Numbered from the stretch's first letter, positions 5,995 through 31,419 are shown. The stretch is 32,000 bases of DNA from Opitutales bacterium (GCA_965219535.1 CBDCNV010000001.1:2100001-2132000), one strand, 5' to 3'. Notes: generated by a model from the sequence alone, not told the origin. Numbers and translations: made by a program.

Positions 5995-6279
5995 CCTATC
6001 ACGATTAGACTGAAAATCATAATAAAATTACTTTCCGGCAATTTAAGTGTAATTTATTCTCTACATTTGAATAAAATCAGTAATCCTTTCAAATACCAAT
6101 CAGTTTATAGGCAAACGATGCTCTATAGGGCTTCTCTATTATAAGTGCCTGTAAACTCAGAATCTTTCCCTCCCAGATGTTTTTTTCATGATAAATACTT
6201 TTTGAAGACTCTATTCGTAAAAAATTTAATTTTTTTCGTGATTTTTAAATCTTAAACAGTAACCTCATCGTTTTCTCTA

Positions 6280-14997: not shown

Positions 14998-15085
14998 GGA
15001 GAGATGGCAGAGTGGCCGATTGCGGTAGTCTTGAAAACTATTGAACCGAAAGGTTCCGGGGGTTCGAATCCCCCTCTCTCCGCCA
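14998..15085 (+). tRNA. tRNA-Ser (anticodon UGA), CCA encoded
   Basis: Acceptor stem GGAGAGA/TCTCTCC, anticodon arm GTAGT-CTTGAAA-ACTAT, long variable arm GAACCGAAAGGTTCC, T-arm GGGGGTTCGAATCCCCC and terminal GCCA. Confidence 0.9.
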
Positions 15086-15513
15086 TTTTATAAGGTATTA
15101 TTAATAATAACTTTATGAATGTTATAATTTAATAATATGCCAAAATTACAATGGTTATTACAATAAACTCACCAACATTCAAGGATGTCGCAGACACTAT
15201 TTAATAACTTTTCTCTATTGAAAAGAGAGGGATAAAAAAACACATTCCTCAACAATCGATGATCCATTAACCTGTATGAGGCGGAGGAGGTATTAAGTGA
15301 ATGAGGCTTTCCTGGCGATGTAGTTATTCCCACCCGCAAATTCGGACACCCTGCTTTCATGCGGTTTTCATTTTCTCTAACAACCGAGTGATCCCAACTC
15401 ATAGCCGCTGGTAAATTCGGCATGAGCGGTTACCAATTCACTTGATCCATTCGATTCAAAGAAAATTATAGCCTATCCGCAGATGTGTAAATGTTTCCTG
15501 ACTAATTTAATAA

Positions 15514-15993
15514 ATGACTGAATTTAATACTGGAATATTTGAATGGGATATTCGAGATATATCTTCCGCTCTATGTATTACACTGAATGACGCTCGCCTA
15601 TATTTTACAGATGGTAGAAAAGTATCATTTTTAATGGAACGTAGAATAGCCTACGAGGTGCTAAATGGCAGATTGGCACCGAGCGAGGGAGCTGGGTATG
15701 ATGTTATAGATGACAAGGGTTACAAATGGGAGGTGCGCAGCATTTCAAAGGGCGGTATTTACTTTTGCCCTAGCTATATGGTTGGATCAGGGCGTTCATT
15801 CAATGAATCGGGATTCCTCCAAAAAATAGAAGAAATCGAAGGCTTCATTGTCACGGATATTGAAAAATTTCCGGCTATTCCTTACTGGATTATTCCCGCG
15901 TATGAGGTAGTTCGCTGGTGGGAAGAAGGCAGCTTAGGTACTACTACTAAAATTACTCGCAAAAAAATGCTTGAGTTGCTACATTCAGGATAA
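15514..15993 (+). CDS. putative type II restriction endonuclease (small PD-(D/E)xK-like protein)
   Basis: 159 aa. Its stop overlaps the methyltransferase ATG (TAATG at 15991-15995). GYDVIDDKGYKWEVRSISKGG fits a D...E-x-K/R nuclease core. The sequence is AT-rich relative to the backbone. The assignment rests on context and a weak motif. Confidence 0.5.
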   Translation: MTEFNTGIFEWDIRDISSALCITLNDARLYFTDGRKVSFLMERRIAYEVLNGRLAPSEGAGYDVIDDKGYKWEVRSISKGGIYFCPSYMVGSGRSFNESGFLQKIEEIEGFIVTDIEKFPAIPYWIIPAYEVVRWWEEGSLGTTTKITRKKMLELLHSG

Positions 15994-17261
15994 TGGACGT
16001 CGAACAGTTGTCACTAATAGAAGAAGAAATTCCTGAGACACCTATTCTTACAACTCACGAGTTTGAAGAAGAACTGACGAAATTCAACGAATTTGGTAAA
16101 AATACTGTTATACAAGATTTCCCTGACTCTGATATTGATTTGCCTGTTTATGTAAATGAGTTTTGGACCTCTAAGCAAAGGGCCGCATCCTCGTTGCATG
16201 AAATTTCCTATAGAGCTTGCTTTAAGCCACAACTTCCGCGGTTCTTTATAAATAGGTTATCTCAATTTGGCGATATAGTATACGATCCATTCATGGGTAG
16301 AGGTACGACGTTAATCGAATCCGCCCTACTTAAAAGGTATGCCACAGGTTGTGACATTAACCCTTTGAGTCGTATTTTAGTAGAGCCAAGACTTACTCCA
16401 CCAGCACTAACTGCAATATTCGATAGGTTACGCAACCTTGATTTAGATTCTCCAACTTCAATTAACGACAAACTTCTGGCATTCTATCACCCTGTAACTC
16501 TGCTTCGCATCACTAATTTGAGAAAATATTTACTGGCCCGAGAATCAGAAGGAACTATTGACCCAATTGACTCTTGGATTAGAATGGTTGCGACCAATCG
16601 CCTCACTGGCCATTCGACGGGATTTTTCTCAGTTTATACACTCCCTCCAAACCAAGCTTTATCAATCGAATCACAAATAAAGATCAACGCGAAGCGCAAC
16701 CAAGTACCACCAGAACGCGACATAATATCGCTTGTTATTAAAAAAAGTCGATCCCTACTAAGCAATGTTGACTCTTTTACTCTAAAAAGAATTGGCGAAT
16801 CGGCTCGCAATTCATGTTTTATAACCGGAAGCTGTGACAGCACCCCTCAATTAAAAGATTCTACAATTCGCTTAGTTGTCACGTCCCCACCTTTTCTTGA
16901 TGTCGTAGATTACCAAAAAGACAATTGGTTACGTTGTTGGTTTAACGGGATTGATTCACACAGCGTAAGTATATGGCAGTTGAAAAAAAAGGAAGACTGG
17001 ATGGCTGCAATGACTAGAGTATTCTGCGAGCTAAAACGTGTTTTAATACCCGGCGGACACGTAGCGTTTGAAGTTGGTGAAGTTAGTGGAGGTAATTTAC
17101 TGCTAGAAACACTGGTAGTACCGGCTGCCATTAAGGCTGGGTTAAATCCAATCTTCGTCCTGATCAATGATCAAAAATTTACGAAGACTTCAAATTGCTG
17201 GGGTGTATCCAATTCAACTAAAGGCACAAATACTAACCGTATTATCTTGCTCCGTAAATAA
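15993..17261 (+). CDS. DNA methyltransferase (N4-cytosine or N6-adenine class)
   Basis: 422 aa. The AdoMet motif I DPFMGRGTT (with GCDINPLS following) precedes catalytic motif IV VVTSPPFLDVVDY. That gives an order of I, long middle region, IV (alpha-like). SPPF rather than DPPY hints at m4C. Confidence 0.85.
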   Translation: MDVEQLSLIEEEIPETPILTTHEFEEELTKFNEFGKNTVIQDFPDSDIDLPVYVNEFWTSKQRAASSLHEISYRACFKPQLPRFFINRLSQFGDIVYDPFMGRGTTLIESALLKRYATGCDINPLSRILVEPRLTPPALTAIFDRLRNLDLDSPTSINDKLLAFYHPVTLLRITNLRKYLLARESEGTIDPIDSWIRMVATNRLTGHSTGFFSVYTLPPNQALSIESQIKINAKRNQVPPERDIISLVIKKSRSLLSNVDSFTLKRIGESARNSCFITGSCDSTPQLKDSTIRLVVTSPPFLDVVDYQKDNWLRCWFNGIDSHSVSIWQLKKKEDWMAAMTRVFCELKRVLIPGGHVAFEVGEVSGGNLLLETLVVPAAIKAGLNPIFVLINDQKFTKTSNCWGVSNSTKGTNTNRIILLRK

Positions 17262-17382
17262 ATTTGATCAGTTCCCCTGGGAGAGGGCTGTGCTCGTTTT
17301 AGAGGGCTTGTGCTTATCTTAGCCTCAGTTGGTCAACGTTCAGCTACCGGCCCAAGCAGGCCAGTAGGAAAGCGCAGTGATT

Positions 17383-17501
17383 GGCCGCGTTCGGGCTACG
17401 CCCTCACTTCGCCAAGATCTCTCCTATACATCAATCCTAAAACCATTAACGCCCGGTTACTCTCTCACTTAATTATTGGTAGGAAAAACGGGGTCCGATC
17501 A
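17383..17501 (+). mobile_element. solo terminal fragment of an IS3-family element (type B/C end)
   Basis: TTGGCCGCGTTCGGGCTACGCCCTCACTTCGCCAAGATCTCTC...AAAACCATTAACGCCCGGTTACTCTCTCACTTAA...ACGGGGTCCGATCA matches the reverse complement of 22611-22740 and the end of the IS at 21686-21754. It stops at the IS terminus ...GATCA. Confidence 0.75.
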
Positions 17502-17749
17502 GGGGGACGTCTTTCTGGAGTCACCTGCTGCCCCGCTCACGGCTGGACTCACCCTTTCCGTGGCGTGGGGCATGTCCTAGTAATCAATCCTGCGGGCATT
17601 CCGGCGGCTATACGAATAGCGGTAACGGGCTTGAGGCCCTTACCGGGCCACCTTAGGGATGCGTCCGAGGGATTGCACGCACGCCGGAAGGCGGCTATTC
17701 ACCGGGTCGATGCGGCATCCTAGGGACATCGAGGTCCCGCTTTATGCTG
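17502..17749 (-). other. GC-rich, ORF-poor, hairpin-dense segment 3' of the TIR operon (candidate structured RNA or gene relic)
   Basis: All minus-strand frames contain stops. Several clean hairpins are visible on the minus strand: GGGAC-CTCGAT-GTCCC; CGGTAAGGGC-CTCAA-GCCC(G)TTACCG; GCTAT-TCGT-ATAGC; CGCC-TTCC-GGCG. There is also long-range pairing of TAGGATGC with GCATCCCTA. Confidence 0.3.
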
Positions 17750-18112
17750 TCACTGACCTGTTTGAACCTGCTTTTCAGGTGGAGCACCCCGGTTGTAGCT
17801 CTCGATCAGTCGATCCCGGGACTCTCTTTCCGAAGATCCTTTCTCTGATTGGAGACGATGACGCCGTGCTACTGGACCTTTTGGAATGGCAGAACAGAAC
17901 CAAGTATCCACTTCTAATGACTTGCACCTCAATTCGTATTCGCTCAGTGGAGGGAAGTTCGGATCGTGGGGGCAGGCTTGCGGATAGTTTCCGCCGATGA
18001 CGCACCCACACTCGAAAGAGTCAACTTCCTCTTGGTTCGGATCTTGATCATCGTAAGACACAATCCTTTCGACAAGTGGCGCTTCGCAATGAGAGCAGAG
18101 CAATTCGGACAC
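17750..18112 (-). CDS. Cys-rich small protein (zinc-ribbon-like), 120 aa
   Basis: A GTG start at 18112-18110 follows the TIR TAA stop (18115-18113) directly. Cys pattern is CSHC-x25-CGC-x9-C in the first 50 residues. The C-terminal third is charged and low-complexity, so the true 3' end is uncertain. Confidence 0.5.
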   Translation of the reverse strand: MSELLCSHCEAPLVERIVSYDDQDPNQEEVDSFECGCVIGGNYPQACPHDPNFPPLSEYELRCKSLEVDTWFCSAIPKGPVARRHRLQSEKGSSERESRDRLIESYNRGAPPEKQVQTGQ

Positions 18113-18682
18113 TTATTCTCGAAGGTTCAACAGCTCGTTCTCTAGCTCCTCAAAAGCTGTGCCTGTCGCAAGTTTCTCTAACTGAGATCGTCCCTTAGCC
18201 GCATATAGATCAGGGCGAATTACAGCCAAGAGACTAAGCGCAATTTCCTGCGCTGTTCGGTCTGCAGTAGGAAGAGCAACCATGTCGGCCAGAATGGGGC
18301 TTAAGGATGCGACCTCTTCCTTTCCAACGTTGTGCCAGATAGGGAGAAGTGTGAGTCTAGCTTCAATTTGGCGCGTGATAAGTGCGCGTAGCTCGGTTTC
18401 GGGCCATTTTTTTTTCAGGAACGATGGACTCACTACAACAATTCCGATCTGTGATTTAGCCATCCCCCGATCAATAGAACCTGATAGGCTGTCACCAAGT
18501 TTTAGAGAAACCTCATCGTACCATAACTTGACACCTAATCCGCCGAGGGCCTTCACTAGTGGTCGTACGAACTTTTCCTTATCTTCCCAAGCGTGAGAGA
18601 CGAAAGCATCCCAGTGCTCTGTATCTCCCGACATCGTTGTCACAGCCATCTCTCTTTTATTTGTTTCTACGATTTCATCCAT
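18113..18682 (-). CDS. TIR-domain protein
   Basis: 189 aa with the bacterial TIR pattern WDAFVSHAWEDKEKFVRPL, KLWYDEVSLKLGDSL, IGIVVVSPSFLKKKWPETELRAL (putative catalytic Glu) and LLPIWH, plus a roughly 50-aa helical tail. An alternative start is MAVTT at 18649. Confidence 0.9.
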   Translation of the reverse strand: MDEIVETNKREMAVTTMSGDTEHWDAFVSHAWEDKEKFVRPLVKALGGLGVKLWYDEVSLKLGDSLSGSIDRGMAKSQIGIVVVSPSFLKKKWPETELRALITRQIEARLTLLPIWHNVGKEEVASLSPILADMVALPTADRTAQEIALSLLAVIRPDLYAAKGRSQLEKLATGTAFEELENELLNLRE

Positions 18683-18834
18683 ACAGCCTGTAACTCTCTT
18701 GTCAAGCTGGTCGAGACCTAAACGACCAACAATACTACTTATGGTTCTTCGCCAAGTAAGGATGACCTGTTTACCCGATCATTTTTTCGCCAGAACACGT
18801 GTGAGGTCATTTACAGCAACTTGCACGACCAATG

Positions 18835-19499
18835 ACCGGAATGTTCGGCCTTGGGCGGCAGTCCGGTGCAGACATCCCTGCGCCGACGCCTTGGCTTTCG
18901 TGGGGGTGTCGCCAGACCCAGTTCACGTCGCAGACCTTGCACGAGCCGTTTACCCACCTGCCAACCTTCGTCCTTCAACAGCTTCGTGATCTTCGCATAG
19001 CCCCACCTTGGTGTACTGCTATGACAAACGCCTTATAGGCATATGTAGAGCTGTGTAGACAGAAAGTACCGGCACCCCGCTCGCATCGAACACTGGCCCC
19101 GAGCCACAAGTCTCTCTGCCACTTGCCGCTTGTGCCCAGCGCTTACTACCGAGCATAAGCGACATCTACCATTTTTTTTCAAGCGTCTCCTGCAGGATCT
19201 CTATCCCCAGCAGCTTGTCTGCGAGCATCCGTTTTAGCCGCGCGTTCTCCTTCTCGAGCTCCTTCATCCGCTTGGCTTGGTTGACATCAATCATCCCAAA
19301 CTCACGCTTCCAGCGATGGAAGCTCTGTTCGCTTATGTTGTTCTCGCGGCATACTTCCAGGATCGTTTTCCCTTTGTCTGCCTGGCGCAGCATCCTTATC
19401 TTCTCTTCGGTCGTGTATCTTTTGCCTTTCATTGTCTGAGTCCTTTTTAGGTTACCCAGACTAACTTTTCAAGTGTCCCAGTTTTCGTGGTCACGACCA
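18835..19499 (-). mobile_element. IS3-family element type A, copy 1 (5' part only, truncated and internally deleted)
   Basis: The terminus TGGTCGTGACCACGAAAACTGGGACACTTGAAAAGTTAGTCTGGG lies at 19499 on the minus strand. orfA is intact. The N-terminal orfB region matches 30350-30700 and then breaks off near 18835. It lacks a roughly 45-nt stretch present in copy 3. Confidence 0.85.
19166..19432 (-). CDS. IS3-family transposase OrfA (HTH + leucine zipper)
   Basis: 88 aa: MKGKRYTTEEKIRMLRQADKGKTILEVCRENNISEQSFHRWKREFG...KELEKENARLKRMLADKLLGIEILQETLEKKW. It ends at an A8 tract (19172-19179 on the plus strand). Confidence 0.85.
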   Translation of the reverse strand: MKGKRYTTEEKIRMLRQADKGKTILEVCRENNISEQSFHRWKREFGMIDVNQAKRMKELEKENARLKRMLADKLLGIEILQETLEKKW

Positions 19500-19699
19500 T
19501 TCACCCTCAACTAAATATTAAGATAACAAAAAAATTCGATACCGAGGTCGGAAAAGCTGGAGCTAACAGTTCAGTTGGGACTATTCACTTTTTTTTGAGA
19601 GCGACAGATCAATCGCAGGTCACTGATTTCCAATTGTCTGTCGCTGCCCAGCTTCTTTATCAAGCATGAATAGTGCGGCTGGCTCATTACCGGCAATTT

Positions 19700-20164
19700 T
19701 TAATTGCTATCACACATTTGTCGCACTGTCGTTTCTTCTTCTATCTGTTCATCAATGAACCATCGGACAAAGCTTTTTGTCTGAAAATCTCCAGTTTTGT
19801 CTGCTAATTGATAGATCTCACCTATCTTAACCGAACCTTCACGTTCTTGCATAAGGGACGTCTGAAAGACATCGATGATGCTCTTATATTTATTTTTCGG
19901 TGAGGATATCGGCTTTAAATCAACATTACCGTCTCTATTAAGAAGATAATCAAAGATTTTCATCGCATGCTGAAATTCCTCTTCCACCTGCATGCGTAAC
20001 CAGTTAGCAAACCCCCGGAACCCTTGCCCATCCATCCACGCCGACATCGCGAGGTATTGGTATTGGGCGTTTAATTCCATGTTAATCTGTTCATTGAGAG
20101 AGGCCTCAATTTTTTTTGGGAGATTGTTTGCCAGCTTATCACTAGCGCTGCTTATGTTGCTCAT
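19700..20164 (-). CDS. ferritin (non-haem, ferritin-like diiron protein)
   Basis: 154 aa with ferroxidase-centre pattern NMELNAQYQYLAMSAW, QVEEEFQHAMKIFDYL and FIDEQIEEE. Confidence 0.9.
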   Translation of the reverse strand: MSNISSASDKLANNLPKKIEASLNEQINMELNAQYQYLAMSAWMDGQGFRGFANWLRMQVEEEFQHAMKIFDYLLNRDGNVDLKPISSPKNKYKSIIDVFQTSLMQEREGSVKIGEIYQLADKTGDFQTKSFVRWFIDEQIEEETTVRQMCDSN

Positions 20165-20293
20165 AGGTTTCTTTTTTATAGTTCTTATGTCTGTTTGAAC
20201 TAAAAGCTAAATTAATAAGATTAATTGTCAAATAGTGAGTTTTCTATCCGCGTTTCCTGGTGTATGGCATAGATCTCATTAATTAGTTGAAAA

Positions 20294-20481
20294 TTATTTA
20301 ATCCAAACAAGTGTTCCTTTCGGGGCCTCATTGAAAAGGGTGATAACATCCTGATTTTTCATTTCGATACAGCCGGAAGACTGCGGGGTGCCGATAAGAT
20401 CTTCATGATTACTGCCATGAATATAAATAAATCGATTATAAGTGTCGCAATTTGGGCCTTGATTTTTTCCCGGTTCGAGCC
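20294..20481 (-). pseudogene. 3' fragment of an L,D-transpeptidase (YkuD) gene, cut by an IS
   Basis: The minus-strand translation is ...LEPGKNQGPNCDTYNRFIYIHGSNHEDLIGTPQSSGCIEMKNQDVITLFNEAPKGTLVWIK*. It contains the HG...S-x-GC catalytic motif. The upstream part is replaced at 20482 by the IS terminus. Confidence 0.75.
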
Positions 20482-20567
20482 TGACCTGTCCCCGTAAAAC
20501 TGGACCAGGAAAGATTTAGTCTGGCATGGGTGGGAAACCTAATAATAAATAGGAGAAAGAACGACCC

Positions 20568-20840
20568 ATGAAAAGCAAAGGCAAACGCTATAATAAAGAA
20601 CAAATCATCTATGCCCTAAGGCAGGTAGAAGGCGGTCAAAGGATCGCCGAAGTGTGCCGAGAGTTAGGGGTGAGCGAACAGACCTACCACCGTTGGAAGG
20701 GTAAATACGCGGGCATGGGAATCAGTGAATTAAGACGACTGAAGCAACTCGACGAAGAGAACACTAGTTTGAAGAAGCTGGTGGCTGATCTGAGCCTGGA
20801 CAAGCACATGCTGCAGGAAGTTATCACAAAAAAATTGTAA
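20568..20840 (+). CDS. IS3-family transposase OrfA
   Basis: 90 aa with an HTH ([17 protein letters not shown]) and a leucine zipper ([25 protein letters not shown]). Confidence 0.9.
20828..20834 (+). promoter_or_regulatory. candidate programmed -1 ribosomal frameshift heptamer A_AAA_AAA
   Basis: ACA AAA AAA TTG TAA: the heptamer is in the correct phase in orfA. orfB (20846-21625) is in the -1 frame and stays open back through the site ([11 protein letters not shown]...). Confidence 0.6.
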
Positions 20841-20845
20841 AGCCA

Positions 20846-21625
20846 GTGGGCAAGAAGGTGATTGCTGACTGGTTAGTGGAAGCCTATGAGGTGAGCAAAC
20901 GCCGGGCGTGCAGGCTGATGCAGTTGTCTTGGTCGAGTTATAACTACCAGCCGGTGAAGAAGGACGAACGTGCGCTGATCATGCGCATCGGTGACCTCGC
21001 CGCCGCGCGCGTGCGCTACGGGTATCGGCGAATCACGGTGTTATTAAAGCGGGAAGGCTGGACGGTAGGAAAGAAACGCGTTTATCGTATCTACAAGGCC
21101 GAAGGGCTGGAAGTGCGCACGAAGAAACGAAAGAAGCGTGCCGCGCAAAGACGGGTGTCACTGCCCGCGGCATCAGCTGCCCAGGAGCGCTGGTCGATGG
21201 ACTTTATGAGCGATCGGCTGACCAACGCCCGCCCCTTCCGCATACTCACCGTTGTCGATCAATACACCCGAGCTTGCCCACTGCTTTTGGTCGATACGTC
21301 CATCGGTGGGCACAAAGTCGCTGCAGCACTTATGAAAGCCGCTGCAGGAATCGGTCTTCCCCAAACCATTACCGTCGATAATGGGCCCGAGTTTGCCGGC
21401 AAAGTACTGGATGAATGGGCTTATGGCCATGGCATCAAGCTGGATTTTATCCGGCCAGGCAAACCCGTAGAGAATGGTTATATTGAGAGCTTCAATGGAC
21501 GCTTACGAGATGAACTTCTTAACACCGAGCTATTTTGTACGCTCGCTGAAGCGAAAGAAAAACTTGAAGCCTGGCGGCTTGATTATAATACTCAAAGACC
21601 ACACAGCTCTCTGGGCTATATCTAA
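20846..21625 (+). CDS. IS3-family transposase OrfB (DDE integrase core)
   Basis: 259 aa. DDE context is [18 protein letters not shown] and [19 protein letters not shown]. Confidence 0.9.
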
Positions 21626-21754
21626 GAAAATTAAAACCCATACCACCCTGCCGGATCTAACACTAGCACTGGTACAGTAAACGGGAGCAGGTCAAAACCA
21701 TTAACACCCGGTAACTCTCTCACTTAAACTGGTACGAATAACGGGGTCCGATCA

Positions 21755-22173
21755 ATTGCAATATGCATTCAGCCAACCTCCAATTTATGAAGGTGAATTT
21801 GTAGAGAAAGAAGTATTGGTTGGCTTCAAAAAGGATATATCTGAAATACAGATAAAATCTTTTGAAAATAGATATCAACTAAGACGCTTTAAGATTTTCC
21901 ATCATCTATATGTATGTCATTATAAAATAATTAGCGATAAAACTGTATCTGAGGTAATCAATGAAGCTAAAAAGGATTCGATATATAGAGCCAAACTATA
22001 TAAGAAATATTCAAAGTTCAATCGACCCTGACTTTTTCTTTCAATGGAGCCTTAATAATACTGGGCAAAAGGTTAATGCAATATCGGGTAGTATAGATGT
22101 TGATATCGATTGGCTTGAGGCCATGCAGATATATACTCCAAAAACACCAATAGTTGTTGCTGTAATAGATACA
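21755..22173 (+). pseudogene. fragment of a subtilisin-family (S8) peptidase gene: propeptide plus catalytic-Asp region, frameshifted and truncated at both ends
   Basis: Two overlapping frames are involved. The first (21756-22031) encodes an I9-like propeptide, VLVGFKKDISE...VCHYKIISDKTVSEVINEAKKD. The second (21961-22224) encodes RYIEPNYI...PIVVAVIDTGV, the Asp motif. There is no signal peptide, because the gene starts at the IS end. The frame breaks into a tRNA-like sequence after DTGV. Confidence 0.7.
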
Positions 22174-22207
22174 GGGGTCGCCGGTTCGAATCCGGTTAGC
22201 CACCCCA
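22174..22207 (+). other. 3' fragment of a tRNA-His gene (T-arm + acceptor 3' strand + CCA); att-site-like relic
   Basis: GGGGTCGCCGGTTCGAATCCGGTTAGCCACCCCA contains the T-arm GCCGG-TTCGAAT-CCGGT. The 3' end TTAGCCACCCCA is the characteristic tRNA-His terminus. No matching 5' half (GGTGGCTA...) is present upstream. Confidence 0.7.
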
Positions 22208-22343
22208 GCGATTTAATCATTTAAGATCTGATATTAACTACTTATGATTTAACTAAGTATACTAAATAACCTAATATATTGATAATAAATTGACTAAATG
22301 GAGATTTAATCTTTTGAATTTTAACACCAAATATGAAATTTTC

Positions 22344-22613
22344 ATGTTAAAAAATTCGCTGACGTTCTTAATTTTCTCTATTTTATCCCCTCTCCTTCTA
22401 ATAGCAGTGCCCCAAGACCTTGAGGTATTCACAGATTTCGAGAATATCAGCGGTGAAGGTGAATTTTTCATCGGCGAAGAGCCAAACAGAGTCAAGTTAG
22501 TTGGATTCACCGTTGAAACTTTAGAGGATCCTGCGCTTTTACACTCCGGAACAAAAGCGATAACCCTCGGGCCCGGTCAGGAGGGGGTAATTGTATCGGA
22601 TAGAGGGCTTTGA
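22344..22613 (+). pseudogene. 5' fragment of a secreted-protein gene, truncated by IS type B
   Basis: MLKNSLTFLIFSILSPLLLIAVPQD looks like a signal peptide. The reading frame is closed by the TGA that forms the first bases of the IS terminus TGATCGG at 22611. Confidence 0.5.
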
Positions 22614-23950
22614 TCGGACCCCGTTTTTCGTACCAATTTAAGTGAGAGAGTTACCGGGTGTTAATGGTTTTAGGATTGATGTATATGAGAGATCTTGGCG
22701 AAGTGAGGGCGTAGCCCGAACGCGGCCAAGATCGGAAAGGAATCTGACAAACTCTTGTGGGCTTTTGAAGCCTAAACGACTGTGGGGATGTTCATGGTTA
22801 TAGGTCTGACGCCATTGTTCGATTACCACTTGCGCTTCAGCCACGCTGAGCAACACTTCACGGTTCAAACACTCATCGCGTAAGCGGTTGTGAAACGACT
22901 CGATGAAACCGTTTTGCCAGGGACTGCCCGGATCGATATAGATCGCCTTTATGTTATTACCGGACAACCACTGCTGCACTTGATGAGCAATGAACTCACT
23001 GCCGTTGTCACTACGGATATAGCTGGGAGGTCCCTCCTCTTCAATGGCCTCGCTAAGCACAGAGAGGACATCGGTTGAGGTGAGTTGACGAGCGACCCGG
23101 ATATCCAGGCATTTACGCGTATATGTCTTCGCTTCGCTTGAGTGTCGTCGCTTTCAGCTCCTCGGTACATCGATTAGAGTCATCATCTTTAATGGACCGC
23201 CGTTGTCTGTACGATCATGGACAAAGTCCCAGGACCAAACGTGATTGCGACCCTTTGCTTTAGTAGGTGACCCCGTAGAGACTCCTTGACGGTGTCTGCC
23301 CTTTTTCGGGGGCTTTACCTGCAGCCCTTCTGAACGTCGTACCGCCTGGACAAACTTCCTGCTTGTTGTCCAGCCTTCCTTTACCAGCAAGGCACGGATG
23401 CGCCGGTAACCGTAGCGGGGATGTTTCCAGGACAAGCTCACAATCCGCTCGACCAACCGCTGAGCTTTCTCACTGGCCTGTTTGGGCCGGTAACTGAACG
23501 TTGACCAACTCAGGCTGAGATAAGCACAAGCCCTCCGCAACGAGCACAACCCTTTCTCAGCCGCAGCTTTTACTACTCGTTTCTTCTGCTTTGGGCTCAC
23601 CATTTTTTTGACAGCGTTTCCTCCATTACCTGATTCTTGAGCATTTGATCTGCGAGCAGCTTCTTCAGCTCGGTATGTCAGGCCTTCTCGCTTGCGCTCG
23701 TGAATTCTTTTTCCAGCTCTTTAAATCGCTTCGCATCGGCAAGTTCTAAATTGCCATATTTTTTACGCCAGCGATAGAAAGTCTGTTCGCTCAGGTTGTT
23801 TCCACGGCAGATTTCCTGTACCGTTTTACCGGTATCGGCTTGCCGCAATATTGTTATAATCTGTTCTGTTGTGTATCTTTTTCTTTTCATTGAGGTTATC
23901 TGTTTATCCCGATAACCTCTCTCTGTAAATGATACGATTTTTGGGGGTCA
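22611..23950 (-). mobile_element. IS3-family element type B, full length but pseudogenised (1340 bp)
   Basis: The termini are TGATCGGACCCCGTTTTTCGTACCAATTTAAGTGAGAGAG (22611) and, in reverse complement at 23950, TGACCCCCAAAAATCGTATCATTTACAGAGAGAGG. orfA (23678-23890) loses frame inside the zipper. orfB is split into 23154-23603 and 22638-23060 by a roughly 40-nt insertion carrying a stop (LIDVPRS*...TYTRKCLDIRV). Confidence 0.85.
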
Positions 23951-23954
23951 CTCC

Positions 23955-24782
23955 ATGAATCCAAGTTTCGACAATGTCAAGGACATCAAGTGGTCATCAA
24001 TACTGCGGCTACGGGCAGTTGAGAATCGCTTCTTCGCTCTGTGTACGCTCCATGATAACGGCCGTGGAAGAACTCATCCCTTTGCCTTTTCGCCAGACGG
24101 CAAAGAACTCATGGGAAGACACGTGGGTTCCCCCGTCACTAGGCCGCTTTCTAAATGCAGCGAATCCGATGCCATCTATGTAGTCGATCTCGACATGCGT
24201 TCTGCTGATAAACCGCTGGATTGGTCTCAACTGCCATGCGCTAAGAAGGCACAAGTAGATCGGTCAGGTCAACTCCAGCGTCCTGTCCGTGTTGCAATGA
24301 TCAAACAACAACCCGCATTGTTGGGAGTCGCGGGTTGGCAAACTGTGGAAGAACCCGGGCGTATCTTCGAAACTGATTCCGGATCAGTATACGTTGGAGT
24401 GATACGGGACGAACGGATTTTGGATGCAGCCAAATGTTTTGCCGTCTTGCACACGGCAAAAAAGAAGGGGTGTACCCCGATTTTATGGAATACTTGGGAC
24501 GAGCTTCCAACAGATTCGTCGCGCTTGGCAATGCTCATGATGGGCCGAGCAATTGAATGTTGCGCGCCGGTCTTTGTTTCCGACCGAACCGGAATTCATG
24601 AACTCATTGAACTGTCAAACCGCAACAAGATACCTGCTCGCAGAAATGTGCAAGTGTCTCGGGAAGTAGTGGTGGACATTGGATATGCATGGGGCCTGGA
24701 TAGTGCGTTTAAGATGGTTGCCAGAAAACTTCCTCACAATATGAAACGAACCGCATTAGACCGCTATCGAAGACTGGCGTGA
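23955..24782 (+). CDS. N-terminally truncated protein: tail of a carbon-nitrogen hydrolase (nitrilase-superfamily)-like domain fused to an unknown roughly 170-aa C-terminal domain
   Basis: The ORF begins 4 nt after the IS type B terminus. LRLRAVENRFFALCT...AFSPDGKEL...AIYVVDLDM resembles the last strands of CN-hydrolases (RA-x-EN motif). The remainder has no motif I recognise. Confidence 0.5.
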   Translation: MNPSFDNVKDIKWSSILRLRAVENRFFALCTLHDNGRGRTHPFAFSPDGKELMGRHVGSPVTRPLSKCSESDAIYVVDLDMRSADKPLDWSQLPCAKKAQVDRSGQLQRPVRVAMIKQQPALLGVAGWQTVEEPGRIFETDSGSVYVGVIRDERILDAAKCFAVLHTAKKKGCTPILWNTWDELPTDSSRLAMLMMGRAIECCAPVFVSDRTGIHELIELSNRNKIPARRNVQVSREVVVDIGYAWGLDSAFKMVARKLPHNMKRTALDRYRRLA

Positions 24783-24800
24783 GAGGCAGGGACCGATGAC

Positions 24801-25209
24801 ATGGAGCGTTTCCGCACCCTGGTGCCGTTCCTGTCCAAGTTCGAGGCGCCCGACTTCTAGTTCGGTCATTGAGTCGAACGTGCAGGGTAATTGATCCCGG
24901 AATCTGAGTTGAGTCCTGTCGCATCGGGTTTCGTTTCCACCTGCTACAAGACCAGTTGGATTGGGAAGGGTTTCGACAGCTCGGAATGGAGAAGCAGGGT
25001 CGACGGAAGAACTCGGACGAAGCCAGTCAGCTTCGCGAAGACCCGGGCGCGTTCGATTCAGTGACGCTCAGGTAGTTAAGTCGGCGACTGATGGTCTTGA
25101 TCAGACAAGAGCGTTTCGTCACCGGCGTGTTGGCTGGCATTTTCGAATCCGGTTTTTGGTAGAGATTATTCGGCACGTAGCGGCGCTGGCCACTCAACCG
25201 ACGTCATGA
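24801..25209 (+). pseudogene. degraded small gene (in-frame stops and frameshifts)
   Basis: MERFRTLVPFLSKFEAPDF*FGH... continues in other frames as ...SGFVSTCYKTSWIGKGFDSSEW... and ...LIRQERFVTGVLAGIFESGF(W*)/LVEIIRHVAALA. Coherent protein-like segments are spread over three frames. Confidence 0.5.
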
Positions 25210-25249
25210 AGGCCGCTCGGGAATGCCCGTGAGATTAAGCGCGCGGCAC

Positions 25250-25728
25250 TAACCGGATCGTCGGACCTCAGAGCCGCGTTCACGCGTTGTGTAACGAATG
25301 TCTTGGTCGCGTAGCGGACGTCTGAAAAGAACGCTTTGGAATCGAGCCCGGGAACCTACAGTATCTGTCGGGATGGAATATGAGACTCGATACCAAAGCA
25401 GCGGCACTTACGGGTGGAATTTTTCTAGGCGGTTCGATCTTCCTCGTCGGCATCACCAGTCTAATCCGGTCAGATTAAGGCCACACGTTGCTGGAATTGG
25501 CCGCGTCGCTGTACCTGGCTACGACGCAGATCCTTTTTCCCGCAGCTCGTCACCGGAACCTTATATGGCATGGTGAACGGTTTTGTTGGCGACCGCGATC
25601 TTGTATTTCTGGAGCAGCTCGCACAGCGGTACCCGGTGATCGCGCTTCGCCTTCATCCGTGAAGCGGGAATCGTCCATACTCGGTCCGTCAGATCGATCT
25701 CACCCATTCTCGGCATCGCCCATCCCAA
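25250..25728 (-). pseudogene. remnant of a P4-type tyrosine integrase (C-terminal catalytic half, frameshifted)
   Basis: The minus-strand translation is GEIDLTDRVWTIPASRMKAKRDHRVPL, which matches the integrase box I region W-x-IP-x-x-RMK-x-x-x-x-H-x-VPL. Later fragments (TCGLNLTGLDW ~ HGLRSTFRDW; ARFQSVLFRRPLRDQ ~ AYRRSDLFERRRxLMDxW) lie in other frames. The N-terminal half is absent. Confidence 0.65.
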
Positions 25729-25729
25729 T

Positions 25730-26500
25730 TTACTTCAGATGTGGTTTATCAAAGTAATCTTGGATTTTCCCTATCAGGTGCGAGACGTCTATCCATGACT
25801 CGGCGTAGGCGTTATTTCTCCGCCACCCTACGTGCCATATCACGGGTGTCTCCTTAAGTTGCCTGTTCTTAATTAAAGGTTTATCGTTTTCGGTTCGGCA
25901 ATCGGCTCTCACAGTCATACACTGACTGGCGAAGAATGTTTTCCAGATGCTCTCCTGTAGGAGCGGCCACTTCTTAATCGTTTCAAGGCAGTGCTCTAAA
26001 TCGCCCAACCCCTGCTTAAGCACTACCAACGCCTGTTTCTTGTTCATATTATTGAATTTTTCTTCTGCCAAACCACAAATTACCAAGAAGATATCTTCAG
26101 GTGTTAACACGAGGCGTTCGACAGAGTCGAGAAACAGGTTATAGGGAATGATAACCCTCTCTCCCAGATCATTGGAGATGTCTAGGTTACCATCTCCTAT
26201 CCTCAAATAGTACACATGAATGACCATCCCCAACAGGTTCTTCAAATGTATGTTCTTGGTCTTCCCGAACTCGTCTGTGACATCCAAATTCCAGCCACGC
26301 AGATGGATGGGTAATTTGTTCCCACCCGGGTCGGCTTCCGCGATCGTCGTGGCAATATCGCGGGCTGGGTGTACAAGGGACTTGAATTGGTAGGTCTGCC
26401 TCGTGAAGGACGACCCTCCCGTCAACGGCAACGCAAATTGTTGTTCCCGTAATTGTACAAGGTTTTGGCGCAGTAACTCGACTTGGTCTACCAAGAGCAT
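25730..26500 (-). CDS. hypothetical protein, 256 aa, orphan
   Basis: Uninterrupted ORF with GAAGGA 12 nt upstream of the ATG. It is less GC-rich than both flanks. No motif I can recognise. Confidence 0.65.
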   Translation of the reverse strand: MLLVDQVELLRQNLVQLREQQFALPLTGGSSFTRQTYQFKSLVHPARDIATTIAEADPGGNKLPIHLRGWNLDVTDEFGKTKNIHLKNLLGMVIHVYYLRIGDGNLDISNDLGERVIIPYNLFLDSVERLVLTPEDIFLVICGLAEEKFNNMNKKQALVVLKQGLGDLEHCLETIKKWPLLQESIWKTFFASQCMTVRADCRTENDKPLIKNRQLKETPVIWHVGWRRNNAYAESWIDVSHLIGKIQDYFDKPHLK

Positions 26501-26654
26501 CGTTTTGATCTATCCTTCATCCACTCTACACATTCTGATATCCACCACCAGTGTGACATCGCCCAAAATCGGCTGGTAACCCTACTGACCTGCACCCACA
26601 AGTGATACCAGCCGCTAAGTTAGAGTCGGAATCATGTGGAGTCAAGCCCATGGG

Positions 26655-26909
26655 AGTGAACTCCCAACCTGCGTCTTGGGCAGAAAGGCCTCCTTACTCC
26701 ATCCGCCACCAGTAGTACGTTTGCTCCGCCACCCCTATTCGTTTGCATACTTGGCCGACACTCTCACCCTTGAACCAGAGCCACCTCCGCCTCACGCAGC
26801 ATGATGATGATCTGCTCGGGTATAAACGGCTTCCTTGCCATGCCCAGCCTCTTTCCTGAAATCGAAGTTCCTAACAATTAATCTGGCCTAGTTTTAGGGA
26901 GCAAGGTCA
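26655..26909 (-). mobile_element. remnant of a fourth IS3-family element (type D): left terminus plus frameshifted orfA
   Basis: The terminus TGACCTTGCTCCCTAAAACTAGGCCAG (minus strand from 26909) resembles the type C IRL. The orfA-like reading is MARKPFIPEQIIIMLREAEVALVQG*, then ...VGQVCKRIGVAEQTYYWWRMEYGGL in another frame. Confidence 0.65.
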
Positions 26910-26912
26910 AGA

Positions 26913-28205
26913 TGGTCGTGACCACGAAAACTGGGACAGTTGAAAAGTTAGTCTGAGTAACCTGGAAAGGACTCAGACAATGAAAGGCAAAAAATACACC
27001 ACCGAAGAGAAGATACGTATATTGCGGCAAGCAGACAGAGGCAAATCGATCCAGGAAGTGTGCCGGGAGAATAACGTCAGCGAACAGACCTACCACCGTT
27101 GGAAGCGTGAGTTTGGGATGATAGATGTCAACCAGCCCAAGCGGATGAAGGAACTCTTTGAAAGAGAACGTGCGATTAAAACGGATGCTAGCGGACAAGC
27201 TGCTGGGGATAGAGATTTTGCGGGAGATCCTCGAAAAAAATGGTAGATGTCGCTTACGCTCGGTAGTAAGCGCTGGGCACAAGAAGCAAGTGGCAGAGAG
27301 ACTTGTGGGCCGGGACCATTGTTCGATGCGTGCAGCGTGCCGATACTTTCACCTGCACCGTTACACCTATGCGTATCGGGCGAACGTATCCGGATGGCTG
27401 GCTAACGAAACTGAAGGCGGAAGTAAGGCGGTTATCACGGCAATACGCGAGGTGGGGCTATGCGAAGAACACGAAGCTGTTGAAGGACGAAGGTAGGTGG
27501 GTGGGTAAACGGCTCGTGCAAGGTCTGCGACGTGAACTGGGTCTGAGCTATAACCCCACGCAAGCCAAGGCGTCGGCGAAGGGGTGTCTGCACTGGGCTG
27601 CCGACCCTGTTTGGACCTGGGATTTTATCCACGAAAAGACGATCCGCAGGGGGGAATCTCAAAATGCTGACCGCGCTCGACGAGTAGACCCGCGAGTGCC
27701 GGGTGATCCATGTCGATCGCCATATCAATGCGGAGACGGTGCGCGGTATCATGCAAAAAATGATCGAGAGGCATGGACCGCCACAATATATTCGCAGCTA
27801 CAACGGTTCCGAGTTCATTGAAAGGGAATTGCGAGCTTGGCTAGCTGCGATGAAAATCAAAACCCTCTATATCGAACCAGGAAGTCCTTGGCAGAACGGA
27901 TACATCGAATCTTTCCATGCCCGTTTTCGCGAGGAGTGCTTAAACCGTGAGCAGTTATGGACTTTGACCGAAGCCCGCGTGGTGATCGGGGATTGGCGCT
28001 GGCTTTACAATTATGTAAAGCCCCCACCGCAGTCTCGGCAATATCACCACACGGCGCTTTGCTGAAAACCTCAAGACCGAAGGCTCGGGCTCCACTCGGG
28101 CTACGCCCTCATTGCGCCAAGTCTTGACTTCCTCCACCAACTTAACTTCAACATTAACCTCTCCAGACTAACTCTCACAGTGGACCAGTTTGTGTAACCC
28201 GACCA
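26913..28205 (+). mobile_element. IS3-family element type A, copy 2, full length but pseudogenised (1293 bp)
   Basis: The termini are TGGTCGTGACCACGAAAACTGGGACAG... and ...CAGTGGACCAGTTTGTGTAACCCGACCA. The transposase is split over four ORFs (26980-27246, 27158-27496, 27303-27821, 27703-28065). The poly-A tract is A7 (27234-27240). Confidence 0.9.
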
Positions 28206-28216
28206 ATCTGTTCCTT

Positions 28217-28286
28217 ATTCTTTTCATTGAGGTTATCGGTTTATCCCGATAACCTCTTTCTGTAAATGATACGATTTTAGGGGTCA
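28217..28286 (+). mobile_element. solo right-end fragment of IS type B
   Basis: TTCTTTTCATTGAGGTTATCGGTTTATCCCGATAACCTCTTTCTGTAAATGATACGATTTTAGGGGTCA closely matches 23881-23950. Confidence 0.75.
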
Positions 28287-28292
28287 CGCCAC

Positions 28293-28341
28293 GTTACCCA
28301 GACTAACTTTCCGATCGGCACAGTTTCCGTGCTCACGACCA
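28293..28341 (-). mobile_element. solo terminal inverted-repeat fragment related to the IS type A left end
   Basis: GTTACCCAGACTAACTTTCCGATCGGCACAGTTTCCGTGCTCACGACCA parallels 19451-19499 (GTTACCCAGACTAACTTTTCAAGTGTCCCAGTTTTCGTGGTCACGACCA). Confidence 0.6.
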
Positions 28342-28430
28342 ACTTGGTTAAGCGTTAATCTGTTGATTATATTCATAAATATAAATCGCATCTAATAAAG
28401 TGGTCACAGACGAGGGTAAATTTAATTCTG

Positions 28431-29751
28431 CTATAATATATTTTCATCATAATCATATTGAATGCTTTGAAGTACCTGAGTAGTCTTATACTGATTACCT
28501 TTTCTAGTAGTTCTCCCGCACTCTGCAATTAGATGTAATCGTCTCTTCGCTCTTGAACAAATTACATAGAGTAATTTTGACGCACGATCTATTGCTTTTT
28601 CACCATCTCTATTATAAATGTCTTGCCAATTTGGGATATACCCTTGAAGGAGCCCAAAACAGATAACCGTATCATATTCTTCACCCTTAATACCATGGCA
28701 TGTATTAACGACAACACCTGAAGGATGTTTGAATAGCTTTTTTAGCGATTCAACGTCACGCGGCACTCGACCCTCTGATTTTTCAATAAGATTATCAGCT
28801 TCCTTAAAAAATTTGGAATAATCTTCATAAAAAGTTTTATGGCTATGAATATCAATTGCTAATTTGCATATTAGACTTTGAAATACATGCTGAAGAAATT
28901 CTAGACCATCGATCACTTGAGAATGAATCGAGTTGATAAGTCGTAAAAAAGTACGTGCCTGTCTATATGCTGCTGGTATTACAATGCCATAATTCTTGTC
29001 TAAATCATTAATTACTTCTTTCGCCCAACGGTGACGAGTTCTAAAATAAGAAGGTGACGGTGTCGTCAAGAATAGGCGAGCTATCTTAAACCAAATACTG
29101 TCTCTCTGGGCGTACAAGGGAGAGAGTCCTGGTGCTTCAAAATCAACATTTGGTAGTAGTTGTACAAGTGATCGACCTAATGCTCTAACATGCCACCAAT
29201 GAGGGGCTAATACACAGATCTCATTTTGTTGAATTCCTTCTTTGAGTGCATATTTAATCAATTTTGCAATGAACGATGGAATCTCCTTTTGATCTATGCA
29301 TTGATTATGAAAAGTAATGGCTCCTTGTTCATTAACATAACTTGTCCTTGAATTAATTGTTGAATTTGTAGATCTAAATAAACAAAAGTAATCTATTAAA
29401 CGCTGAGTTGACCTATAATTACCAGTGAGCTCAAAACGAGTCAGCTTATCGAGACCAAACTCCTCTGCTATTTCTTCAATATTTTTTGCAACACCTCCCA
29501 ATGATTCGTAGATCGCTTGGTCAGCATCACCAACACATAACAATATTGGTGTAGTGTTAGAATACTTTACAATTGAAGCCAGGATGGCATATTGAAGATC
29601 TTGTGTGTCTTGCATTTCATCAATACACAACAAGCGAATAATTTCCCCAATTGTATTAGATATTTCCGGAATGCGTTGTTGTAATTCATACGCGAAATAC
29701 AAAACTTGGTCGTAATCAATCAGTTTCTCTCTTCGCAAAATTTTGTGGTAT
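28431..29751 (-). pseudogene. UvrD/Rep-like superfamily 1 helicase, N-terminal third (Walker A) missing, cut by IS type A copy 3
   Basis: Motif II LLCIDEMQDT, GNYRST, motif V NTCHGIKGEEYDTV and motif VI LLYVICSRAKRRLHL are present. The reading frame stays open upstream of the annotated TTG start (..QYHKILRREK) until it runs into the IS terminus at 29752. Confidence 0.8.
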
Positions 29752-31038
29752 TGGTCGGGTTACACAAACTGGTCCACTGAGAGAGTTAGTCTGGAGAGGT
29801 TAATGTTGAAGTTAAGTTGGTAGAGGAAGTCAAGGCTTGGGCGCAATGAGGGCGTAGCCCGAATGGAGCCCGAGCCTTCGGTATTGAGGTTTTGAGCGAA
29901 ACGTTGTGGAGTAATATTGCCGAGGCTGCGGTGGGGTCGAACATGATTGTAAAGCCAGCGCCAATCTTCGATCACCACGCGGGCTTCGGTCAAAGTCCAC
30001 AGCTGTTCACGATTTAGACACTCCTCGCGAAAACGGGCATGGAACGATTCGATGTATCCGTTCTGCCAAGGGCTTCCTGGTTCGATATAGAGGGTATTGA
30101 TTTTCATCGCAGTTAGCCAAGTTCGCAATTCCTTTTCAATAAACTCGGAACCGTTATCGCTGCGAATATATTTTGGCGGCCCATGAGGGTCGAGCAGTTT
30201 TTGCATGACCCCGCGCACCTTCTGTGCATTGATATGGCGATCGACATGGATCACCCGGCACTCGCGGGTGTACTCGTCAAGGACGGTGAGCATTTTGAGA
30301 TTCCCACCGCGGACCGTCTTATCGTGGATAAAGTCCCAGGTCCAAACATGGTCGGGATGTTCGGCCTTCGTCGGCAGCCCGGTGGAGACACCCCTGCGCC
30401 GGCGTCTTGGCTTGCGTGGGGGAATCGCCAGGCCCAGTTCACGTCGCAGACCTTGCACGAGCCGTTTACCCACCTGCCAGCCTTCGTCCTTCAACAGCTT
30501 CGTGATCTTCGGATAGCCCCACCTCGCGTATTGCCGTGATAACCGCCTTACTGCCGCCTTCAGTTTCGTTAGCCAGGCATCAGGATACTTCGCCCGATAC
30601 GCATAGGTGGAGCGGTGCAGGTGAAAGTATCGGCACGCTCCACGTATCGAACACTGGCCCCGGGCCACAAGTCTCTCTGCCACTTGCCGCTTGTGCCCAG
30701 GGCTTACAGTTTTTTTTCGAGCGTCTCCTGCACAATCTCTATCCCCAGCAGCTTGTCCGCCAGCATCCGCTTTAACCGCGCGTTCTCCTTCAAAGAGTTC
30801 CTTCATCCGCTTGGCCTGGTTGACATCAATCATCCCAAGTTCACGTTTCCAGCGGTGGAAGGTCTGTTCGCTTATGTTGTTCTCGCGGCATACTTCCAGG
30901 ATCGTTTTCCCTTTGTCTGCCTGCCGCAGCATCCGTATCTTCTCTTCGGTTGTATATCTTTTGCCTTTCATTGTCTGAGTCCTTTCTAGGTGTCCCAGAC
31001 TAACTTTTCTAGTGGACCAGTTTTCGTGGTCACGACCA
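29752..31038 (-). mobile_element. IS3-family element type A, copy 3, full length (1287 bp), with a single fused transposase ORF
   Basis: The termini are TGGTCGGGTTACACAAACTGGTCCACTGAGAGAGTTAGTCTGG (29752) and, in reverse complement at 31038, TGGTCGTGACCACGAAAACTGGTCCACTAGAAAAGTTAGTCTGGG. The flanks (ggtat / cattc) are not duplicated. Confidence 0.9.
29760..30971 (-). CDS. IS3-family transposase, genomically fused OrfA-OrfB (403 aa)
   Basis: An N-terminal HTH identical in type to the OrfA at 19166-19432, followed by a DDE core (VWTWDFIHD, IRSDNGSEF, PWQNGYIESFHARFREE). The leucine-zipper segment is read out of frame (FEGERAVKADAGGQAAGDRDCAGDARKK). Confidence 0.85.
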   Translation of the reverse strand: MKGKRYTTEEKIRMLRQADKGKTILEVCRENNISEQTFHRWKRELGMIDVNQAKRMKELFEGERAVKADAGGQAAGDRDCAGDARKKTVSPGHKRQVAERLVARGQCSIRGACRYFHLHRSTYAYRAKYPDAWLTKLKAAVRRLSRQYARWGYPKITKLLKDEGWQVGKRLVQGLRRELGLAIPPRKPRRRRRGVSTGLPTKAEHPDHVWTWDFIHDKTVRGGNLKMLTVLDEYTRECRVIHVDRHINAQKVRGVMQKLLDPHGPPKYIRSDNGSEFIEKELRTWLTAMKINTLYIEPGSPWQNGYIESFHARFREECLNREQLWTLTEARVVIEDWRWLYNHVRPHRSLGNITPQRFAQNLNTEGSGSIRATPSLRPSLDFLYQLNFNINLSRLTLSVDQFV

Positions 31039-31062
31039 CATTCTAAAGAGAGAGAAAGAGAA

Positions 31063-31419
31063 ATGAAATACGCAATTATAGATAATCAAAACAAAGTGCT
31101 TAACGTGATCGAGCTGGAGAGACCAGAAGATTACGTGAGTGAACATACTTTAGTCCGTGCGGATAATTTAATCATTTCAAAAAGCGATTCCTATGACTCG
31201 GTAAAATCTGAATTTAAAAGAGCGCCCGTTGACTCTTCAGCTGAGCAAAACAGACAGGCCAAAGAGGATATTAAAATCACAGACCAACAAGCGGCCCAAA
31301 CACTCGATAGCTTTATAAAGTTTTTAACTACTAAGGAAATCATCACTCAAAGCGAACTACCCTCTGAAATTGCCGAATGGCAAAATAAACGAGCATCAGC
31401 CCTTCAGACGGTAGAATGA
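31063..31419 (+). CDS. hypothetical protein (118 aa from the ATG at 31063)
   Basis: The track ORF 31012-31419 begins inside the IS terminus. The first ATG outside it is at 31063, preceded by a purine-rich stretch AAAGAGAGAGAAAGAGAA. No recognisable motif. Confidence 0.5.
   Translation: MKYAIIDNQNKVLNVIELERPEDYVSEHTLVRADNLIISKSDSYDSVKSEFKRAPVDSSAEQNRQAKEDIKITDQQAAQTLDSFIKFLTTKEIITQSELPSEIAEWQNKRASALQTVE

Follow-up and report, generated by a model that had tools for sequence, protein, structure and literature searches.

Introduction

The described proteins closest in sequence to the gene reported here are the TIR-domain NADases AbTir, PdTIR, BtpA (TcpB) and BtTir, in which an N-terminal coiled coil is followed by a C-terminal TIR domain with a WxxxE motif and its catalytic glutamate; the E208A variant of AbTir is inactive as an NADase (10.1101/2022.05.07.491051). 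The combination of a coiled coil and a TIR domain is also represented in PADLOC by the candidate architecture PDC-S66. SpbK, encoded by ICEBs1 of Bacillus subtilis, is a single-protein TIR abortive-infection system located on a mobile element; it needs no partner gene, and its N-terminal four-helix bundle binds the phage portal (PMC12847820). The Escherichia coli proteins TIR-V and TIR-VI as well as TIR-IX (Wang et al. 2024) are stand-alone TIR proteins, described as short TIR only, whose anti-phage activity needs the TIR active site; they have no known relation to the Cys-rich domain described below and are set beside the present family by description and not by homology. TIR proteins are also members of multi-gene systems, among them Thoeris (ThsB with ThsA, a SIR2/SLOG, Macro or TM protein), retron-TIR (RT-TIR, type XII) and SPARTA.

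The window analysed here is a stretch of 32,000 nucleotides from an Opitutales bacterium, in which an initial annotation had described positions 17750-18682 as a translationally coupled pair of genes, one for a TIR-domain protein and one for a Cys-rich protein. The two open reading frames (ORFs) are one gene, cut by a single nonsense change at Lys190. Most probably this copy is a recent pseudogene, and the intact members of its family would be self-contained effector-sensor proteins. For the window, a false lead is thereby removed, as it holds a single gene with a premature stop and no new two-gene TIR system. Beyond the window, TIR plus the Cys-rich (Cys4) domain constitutes an undescribed single-gene family and, as far as homologous sequences can indicate, a candidate new single-protein effector-sensor design.

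Results and Discussion

Reading Frame and Premature Stop

The minus strand of the window contains a 189-aa ORF (18113-18682) and a 120-aa ORF (17750-18112), and the GTG at 18110-18112 comes immediately after the TAA at 18113-18115, all as initially annotated. Translated as a single frame, 17750-18682 (minus strand) comprises 311 codons with one internal TAA, at codon 190, and both the N- and the C-terminus of the product are intact when compared with its homologues. The search with the 189-aa query retrieved about 70 homologues, mostly of 290-300 aa and 65-84% identical. More than 80 homologues (about 60 close and 22 distant) are single proteins of about 295 aa with the sequence LREKVSELLC, and every full-length homologue carries the TIR domain, the linker and the Cys-rich segment on a single chain. 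In the alignment to these fused proteins the window reads NLRE, stop, VSELLCSHCEAPL, where the family reads DLREKVSELLCxxCEAPL.

The comparison with an intact allele identified the change at nucleotide level. Protein P0075 (297 aa; locus L092, 5960-6853) belongs to the same 90% cluster as the window gene and is 96% identical to it at protein level, with 24 of 894 nt different. The codons are CTT CGA GAA TAA GTG in the window and CTT CGA GAA AAA GTG in L092, and the DNA alignment of three other loci (L004, L005 and L009) has AAG or AAA at the position of the TAA. One A-to-T change on the gene strand (plus-strand position 18115) turned the Lys190 codon AAA into TAA and therefore created the apparent pair, and the apparent GTG start codes for Val191, a residue conserved in the fused protein (consensus LREKVSELLC). 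With TAA in place of a Lys codon, an internal Val codon behind it and all intact homologues fused, the translationally coupled two-gene operon has to be given up. The proposed toxin-antitoxin-like pair falls with it: two separately encoded conserved genes were not found, the intact homologues being single ORFs.

At the stop codon only one base separates the window gene from the intact allele, as would be expected if the stop were a sequencing or assembly error, or if the codon were read through or recoded. Such an origin is nevertheless scarcely credible. The 933-nt gene, TAA included, is identical in three further assemblies from different samples (L001, L002 and L003; two of them are ENA metagenome assemblies, the third is a Logan run), whose flanks differ slightly from those of the window (99.88-99.95% identity), and the stop is therefore a real allele and not a read error. 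Moreover, TAA terminates hisF, radC, sucB and other genes in this genome.

Since the homologues begin with M(x)GDxEHWDAF, the true start of the gene is likely Met12 or Met17 of the ORF. The scan for sigma-70 promoters gave no sites and the scan for terminators gave results at chance level. Gene callers and some public annotations make two genes of it, one coding for a TIR protein and the other for a hypothetical protein. In P0075 itself, the family-invariant Trp of the PIWHN motif is replaced by Leu and the Asp of SYDDQDP by Tyr, and judging from these replacements the L092 copy may be drifting too.

TIR Domain

The 5' part of the gene (18113-18682, minus strand) encodes a TIR domain of NADase type (approximately residues 24-150) and a helical linker, as recognized by Pfam, PDB and Foldseek comparisons. 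The 189-aa ORF matches Pfam TIR_2 (E 4.9e-17) and TIR (E 3.9e-11). Among PDB sequences the domain matches PdTIR (1e-38) and AbTIR (4.7e-37), the E values for the AbTir/PdTIR/BtpA(TcpB)/BtTir class ranging from 1e-35 to 1e-38, and in Foldseek it is 46-47% identical to PdTIR, AbTir and BtpA, with TM of about 0.85 to the targets. The WxxxE motif, which these NADases and the window family have in common, extends from W93 (18404-18406) to E97 (18392-18394), that is, 18392-18406 on the minus strand; both residues align with W204 and E208 of AbTir and are invariant across the family. The TIR domain and the putative catalytic Glu in WPETEL were thus correctly recognized in the initial annotation, and the domain is assigned to the AbTir/PdTIR/TcpB class as a predicted NADase domain.

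The order of domains differs from that class, as the window family has an N-terminal TIR domain followed by the Cys4 domain, whereas in the known NADases the coiled coil comes first and the TIR domain last. The same difference is seen against PDC-S66, the best PADLOC match of the window (4e-57): the window and its full-length homologues cover only positions 137-280 of the 282 of this profile, whereas P0069, a true PDC-S66 protein in which a coiled coil precedes the TIR domain, covers positions 1-281. Membership in PDC-S66, which implies a match along the full length of the profile, was discarded for the window family.

C-Terminal Cys4 Domain

The 3' part of the gene (17750-18112, minus strand, with the native stop at 17750-17752) encodes the C-terminal Cys4 domain, a beta-rich region and a terminal helix. 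All five cysteines of the annotated pattern CxxC-x25-CxC-x9-C are present in the 120-aa ORF (C6, C9, C35, C37 and C47), but only four of them, C6, C9, C35 and C47 (17972-18097), are retained without exception across 16 diverse sequences, C37 being variable. The same four cysteines are C183, C186, C212 and C224 in the family alignment A2, and the arrangement CxxC...C...C is a probable zinc site. The AlphaFold2 pLDDT of the domain is 79-95.

The Cys-rich part had been annotated as coding sequence, with a dN/dS analysis as the suggested check; this analysis was carried out and agrees with a conserved coding sequence, with omega values of 0.12-0.35 for the Cys4 domain and of 0.04-0.35 over both halves of the gene. 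Both halves are shaped by purifying selection.

No match to the Cys4 domain was obtained in Pfam, NCBIfam, PADLOC, PDB sequences, PDB folds or viral folds (BFVD). In Pfam, sub-threshold matches were limited to CoiA_N, in 7 of 20 members (best E 0.019), and Zn_ribbon_FGT1_2 (E 0.0029). Phage and viral searches retrieved TIR-only relatives, in which the C-terminal domain was not found. Several of the top viral fold matches of the domain model (residues ~55-110), all of them non-significant (E ~0.3-1.1), are of RNase III/dsRBD type, a hint that the beta-beta-beta-alpha half of the modelled domain might be dsRBD-like.

Distribution of the Family and Diversity of N-Terminal Heads

The genome scan added about 20 full-length members from widely separated phyla, which include Alpha- and Gammaproteobacteria, Planctomycetota, Acidobacteriota, Verrucomicrobiota and Bacillota, the closest of them being 46% identical to the window gene. 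An intact 309-aa copy is located on the conjugative plasmid pAt2 of A. tumefaciens, and WP_174113216.1 is an intact member from Agrobacterium conjugative plasmids; these intact plasmid members make experiments feasible.

An exhaustive HMMER search with a profile of the C-terminal domain only yielded 209 clusters, formed at 50% identity; the domain is situated at the C-terminus in almost every one of the best 150 of these 209. The word-indexed search with the 120-aa ORF alone had returned one protein and the indexed search with the profile 16; because the exhaustive search gave 209 clusters, the lone match reflects limited sensitivity and not rarity. The regions N-terminal of the domain (heads) comprise TIR, LRR plus TIR, TIR with an extra N-terminal region, DUF4062, DUF4365, the YhcG PD-(D/E)xK nuclease, SMEK, a weak match to HNH, an XRE-type HTH (a group of ~200 aa), coiled coils and an unassigned domain of ~190 aa (18 clusters). 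DUF4062 has recently been reported as a TIR-like NADase. A conserved Cys4 domain without a known relative is thus combined with no fewer than seven kinds of heads, effector or DNA-binding. The linkage between the homologues of the 120-aa ORF and TIR that the initial annotation proposed to look for does exist, with a TIR or another effector head, but it is a linkage by fusion and not by adjacency.

Several of these heads are the same as those of short-Argonaute defence systems, and in PADLOC they correspond to the effector heads in the models for short-pAgo partners and for PDC-S02; none of the PADLOC models sharing those heads covers the C-terminal domain. According to PMC10810196 the partners of short pAgo proteins are TIR-, DUF4365-, SMEK- and HNH-APAZ (SPARTA/SPARDA), so that the same swappable heads recur, HNH possibly among them. 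The constant module is APAZ there, whereas here it is the Cys4 domain of ~115 aa and an Argonaute gene is absent; the analogy is one of design only.

A constant module joined to swappable effectors suggests a sensor or regulatory role for the C-terminal domain. It is tentatively proposed, as a possibility that falls somewhat short of even, that the Cys4 domain defines a new family of immune sensors, modular and each made of one protein, with interchangeable heads, of which the window gene would be a freshly inactivated TIR-headed member. If the C-terminal domain is indeed a trigger sensor or an assembly switch, it would represent a new control of TIR NADases and nucleases. The sensor plus NADase effector envisaged in the initial annotation was a reasonable idea in this respect, although not as a module of two genes, the intact homologues being fused.

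Two groups of clusters were observed apart from the enzymatic heads. In P0177, P0165, P0170 and about a dozen further clusters, of ~200 aa, the XRE-type HTH is joined directly to the Cys4 domain, an arrangement which suggests that this domain can also control a transcription factor; genomic context for it was available from one locus, L131, on a short contig. In P0099, P0134 and 16 further clusters, of ~310 aa, the C-terminal domain is located behind the ~190-aa N-terminal domain, for which no Pfam or PADLOC match was found and which is possibly a new effector head.

Disrupted Copies in Other Genomes

Further copies of the gene are disrupted. Locus L095 has an in-frame stop at a site different from that of the window, the copy of L096 is interrupted by an IS3 element, and that of L097 is split in two in an assembly with a coverage of only 2x. 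The copy of L098 (4914-5913; plasmid NZ_CP064189.1 of Rhizobium sp. 007) has two frameshifts, and its parts have separate gene entries in RefSeq, one for a "TIR domain-containing protein" and one for a "hypothetical protein", an artefact which the window gene shows as well. The Cupriavidus copy (L100) has lost its 5' part by deletion, and what is left starts at the RPDLY motif. That family members have been inactivated repeatedly and independently would fit a gene that is costly and of conflict type.

Five candidates for a stand-alone C-terminal domain gene were considered. P0116 was rejected as the end piece of a gene that a nonsense codon interrupts, P0238 as a 5'-deleted remnant and P0073, on a contig of 685 bp, as a probable contig-end fragment; for P0136 and P0102 no head was detected upstream.

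Status of the Window Copy

By its sequence, the window allele is most likely a recent loss-of-function copy within an IS-ridden island. The nonsense allele appears to be fixed in the sampled population, represented by four assemblies, without further decay. Between the window and the intact allele, the part of the gene behind the stop shows three synonymous and three non-synonymous differences and therefore fits a recent event or retained function alike, the substitutions being too few for dN/dS to separate the two.

The stop falls at the boundary between the linker and the C-terminal domain, and the 189-aa product keeps the complete TIR domain. Because the break sits exactly at a domain boundary, both halves could fold separately, and a split but functional gene has to be considered, in which ribosomes would end at the TAA and reinitiate at the adjacent GTG and the TIR and Cys4 proteins would cooperate non-covalently. 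The adjacency of the two codons, the position of the break and the persistence of an allele fixed in four assemblies without further decay are in favour of this reading. It is nevertheless judged unlikely: all intact relatives are fused, those stand-alone ORFs of the C-terminal domain whose origin could be traced belong to broken genes, in which the breaks lie at arbitrary positions, and no Shine-Dalgarno-like motif was found ahead of the GTG at 18110-18112. The divergence from the intact allele is, in addition, too small to reveal selection after the split.

Slightly less probable still is that the truncated TIR-only protein of 189 aa functions as an NADase or signal producer with a dead ORF downstream. 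It would retain a complete TIR domain with its catalytic motif, but the C-terminal domain is invariably present in the family and under purifying selection, and the island around it abounds in other broken genes. By inference from SpbK, toxicity would be expected of an unregulated TIR NADase, and inertness of one without its assembly or sensor domain.

Under the preferred interpretation, that of a recent pseudogene from a family of self-contained proteins, function is to be sought in the intact members, which from their sequences show a candidate sensor domain, a linker and a TIR domain in one polypeptide. In the intact protein, the C-terminal domain would detect a trigger or control assembly; the TIR domains would then cluster and the clustered TIR would cleave NAD+, by analogy with single-protein abortive infection of the SpbK type. 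In SpbK, likewise, a small domain other than TIR is joined through a linker to a TIR NADase within one polypeptide. SpbK, which lies on a mobile element and needs no partner gene, is the proposed working analogy for the window family, whose sufficiency without a partner is a proposal. The order of the domains is reversed in SpbK, and no sequence or fold relationship was found between its sensor and the Cys4 domain.

Neighbouring Genes and the Question of a Partner

The initial annotation stated that the known partners of TIR systems are absent, and this was borne out for the larger ORFs of the window, among which proteins of the SIR2, SLOG, Macro, cyclase, RT, pAgo or APAZ type were not detected. 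The all-against-all BLASTP comparison of ORFs within 5 kb of the gene, at 22 loci, revealed no conserved neighbour. When the 135 neighbour ORFs of 23 full-length loci were compared with PADLOC and Pfam, no family occurred in more than three of them among the matches listed, counts that rest on the best 25 families per scan. AbiEi/AbiEii, ThsB-like proteins and PDC candidates are only sporadic neighbours at the 23 loci. ThsA, in any of its SIR2/SLOG, Macro or TM forms, was not found in the window, and a ThsA-like partner beside the TIR homologues, which the initial annotation had named as the mark of a truncated known system, does not recur at the 23 loci among the matches listed.

DNA homology between the window and L004 (86%) covers only the gene with about 150 bp on its upstream side and 50-90 bp on its downstream side (17660/17698-18829). 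Because the shared DNA consists of the gene with short flanks and no neighbour recurs, the window gene is, judged by these comparisons, a one-gene unit and not part of a larger system.

The initial annotation had also raised the possibility of a remnant of a larger system. This would be a multi-gene TIR system (ThsB without ThsA, retron-TIR or SPARTA) whose partners were lost through IS elements. IS fragments do flank the gene, and its TIR domain matches the ThsB1, RT-TIR and Aga_TIR models. These matches are, however, confined to the TIR domain within profiles that are built differently. The match to the ThsB1 models of Thoeris (3e-36) covers positions 163-296 of 303 and leaves the C-terminal domain uncovered. 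Retron-TIR was rejected, with NCBIfam and PADLOC matches at the TIR end only and 96 bits against a cut-off of 600, and the Rfam scan of the window gave nothing for msr/msd; SPARTA was rejected as well, the Aga_TIR match being limited to positions 7-80 of 430 (the TIR part) and the window lacking a pAgo. Together with the absence of a recurrent neighbour and the short extent of the homology with a distant locus, this renders a multi-gene origin highly improbable.

A two-gene cassette on the same strand, upstream of the gene in L004, L005 and L009, was examined as a candidate partner and rejected, the three pairs being unrelated to each other. Some neighbours are variable and of conflict type: in L009-L011 a second TIR protein (TIR_2 plus Y4lF, 323 aa; L009, 6768-7739) is located directly upstream of the gene, and in L096 the stop of a PIN_12 protein (5177-6001) directly adjoins the start of the family copy that the IS interrupts. 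In two lineages (L005/L008, 3273-5832; L012, 9120-12428) the gene is found a few kb from thrS-infC-rpmI-rplT-pheST, and a thrS-like ORF of L004 (11221-13071) is also near the family gene; the thrS region may be an insertion hot spot.

Flanking Regions and Genomic Island

Two short native flanks travel with the disrupted gene (17750-18682, minus strand; TIR, helical linker and Cys4 domain). The 5' flank (18683-18829, minus strand), presumed to be the promoter region, ends where the homology with L004 stops and the IS fragment begins, and the 3' flank (17660-17749, minus strand) is delimited by the homology with L004 to 17660/17698. IS remnants on both sides of the gene, as initially described, were recognized. 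The upstream flank is abutted by the left ~660 bp of an IS3-family element (18837-19499, minus strand), with orfA at 19166-19432 and a remnant of orfB; this segment matches HTH_Tnp_1 and is 81% identical to the IS copies at 30353-31038 and 26912-27606. Downstream of the gene there is an IS-end fragment (17381-17501), 95% identical to 22611-22729, the end of an rve_3 ORF. The window and L092 share 17381-19499, including the same junction with the IS3 fragment.

The GC-rich segment 17502-17660, just downstream of the TIR gene, is shared with L092 (92%) and absent from L004, and it has no Rfam match, the tRNA-Ser being the only Rfam match of the whole window. The ORF at 17310-17723 (plus strand, 137 aa) lies over this segment, has no family match and overlaps IS fragments; it is probably spurious and is called as a gene in one public assembly.

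An IS-rich island beside a type II restriction-modification system was correctly annotated. The restriction-modification pair (15514-17261) is apparently intact and consists of a 159-aa REase (PADLOC REase_II, 2.9e-46) and a 422-aa N6/N4 MTase (MTase_II, 5e-185), the stop of the REase overlapping the start of the MTase at 15993. A tRNA-Ser(TGA) gene (14998-15085) is located between a housekeeping block (coaE, glpK, hisF, sucA/sucB/lpd) and the IS-ridden region 15100-31100, which looks like a tRNA-adjacent genomic island. Within it lie the restriction-modification pair and the TIR gene as well as a ferritin-like gene, several copies and fragments of IS3 and unassigned ORFs. A UvrD-like helicase ORF of the island (28431-29738, minus strand) matches Pfam UvrD from position 180 onwards, its N-terminus being missing, and abuts an IS3 copy (29760-30971, minus strand) whose transposase is a single orfA-orfB fusion of 403 aa; this ORF appears to be another IS-broken gene.
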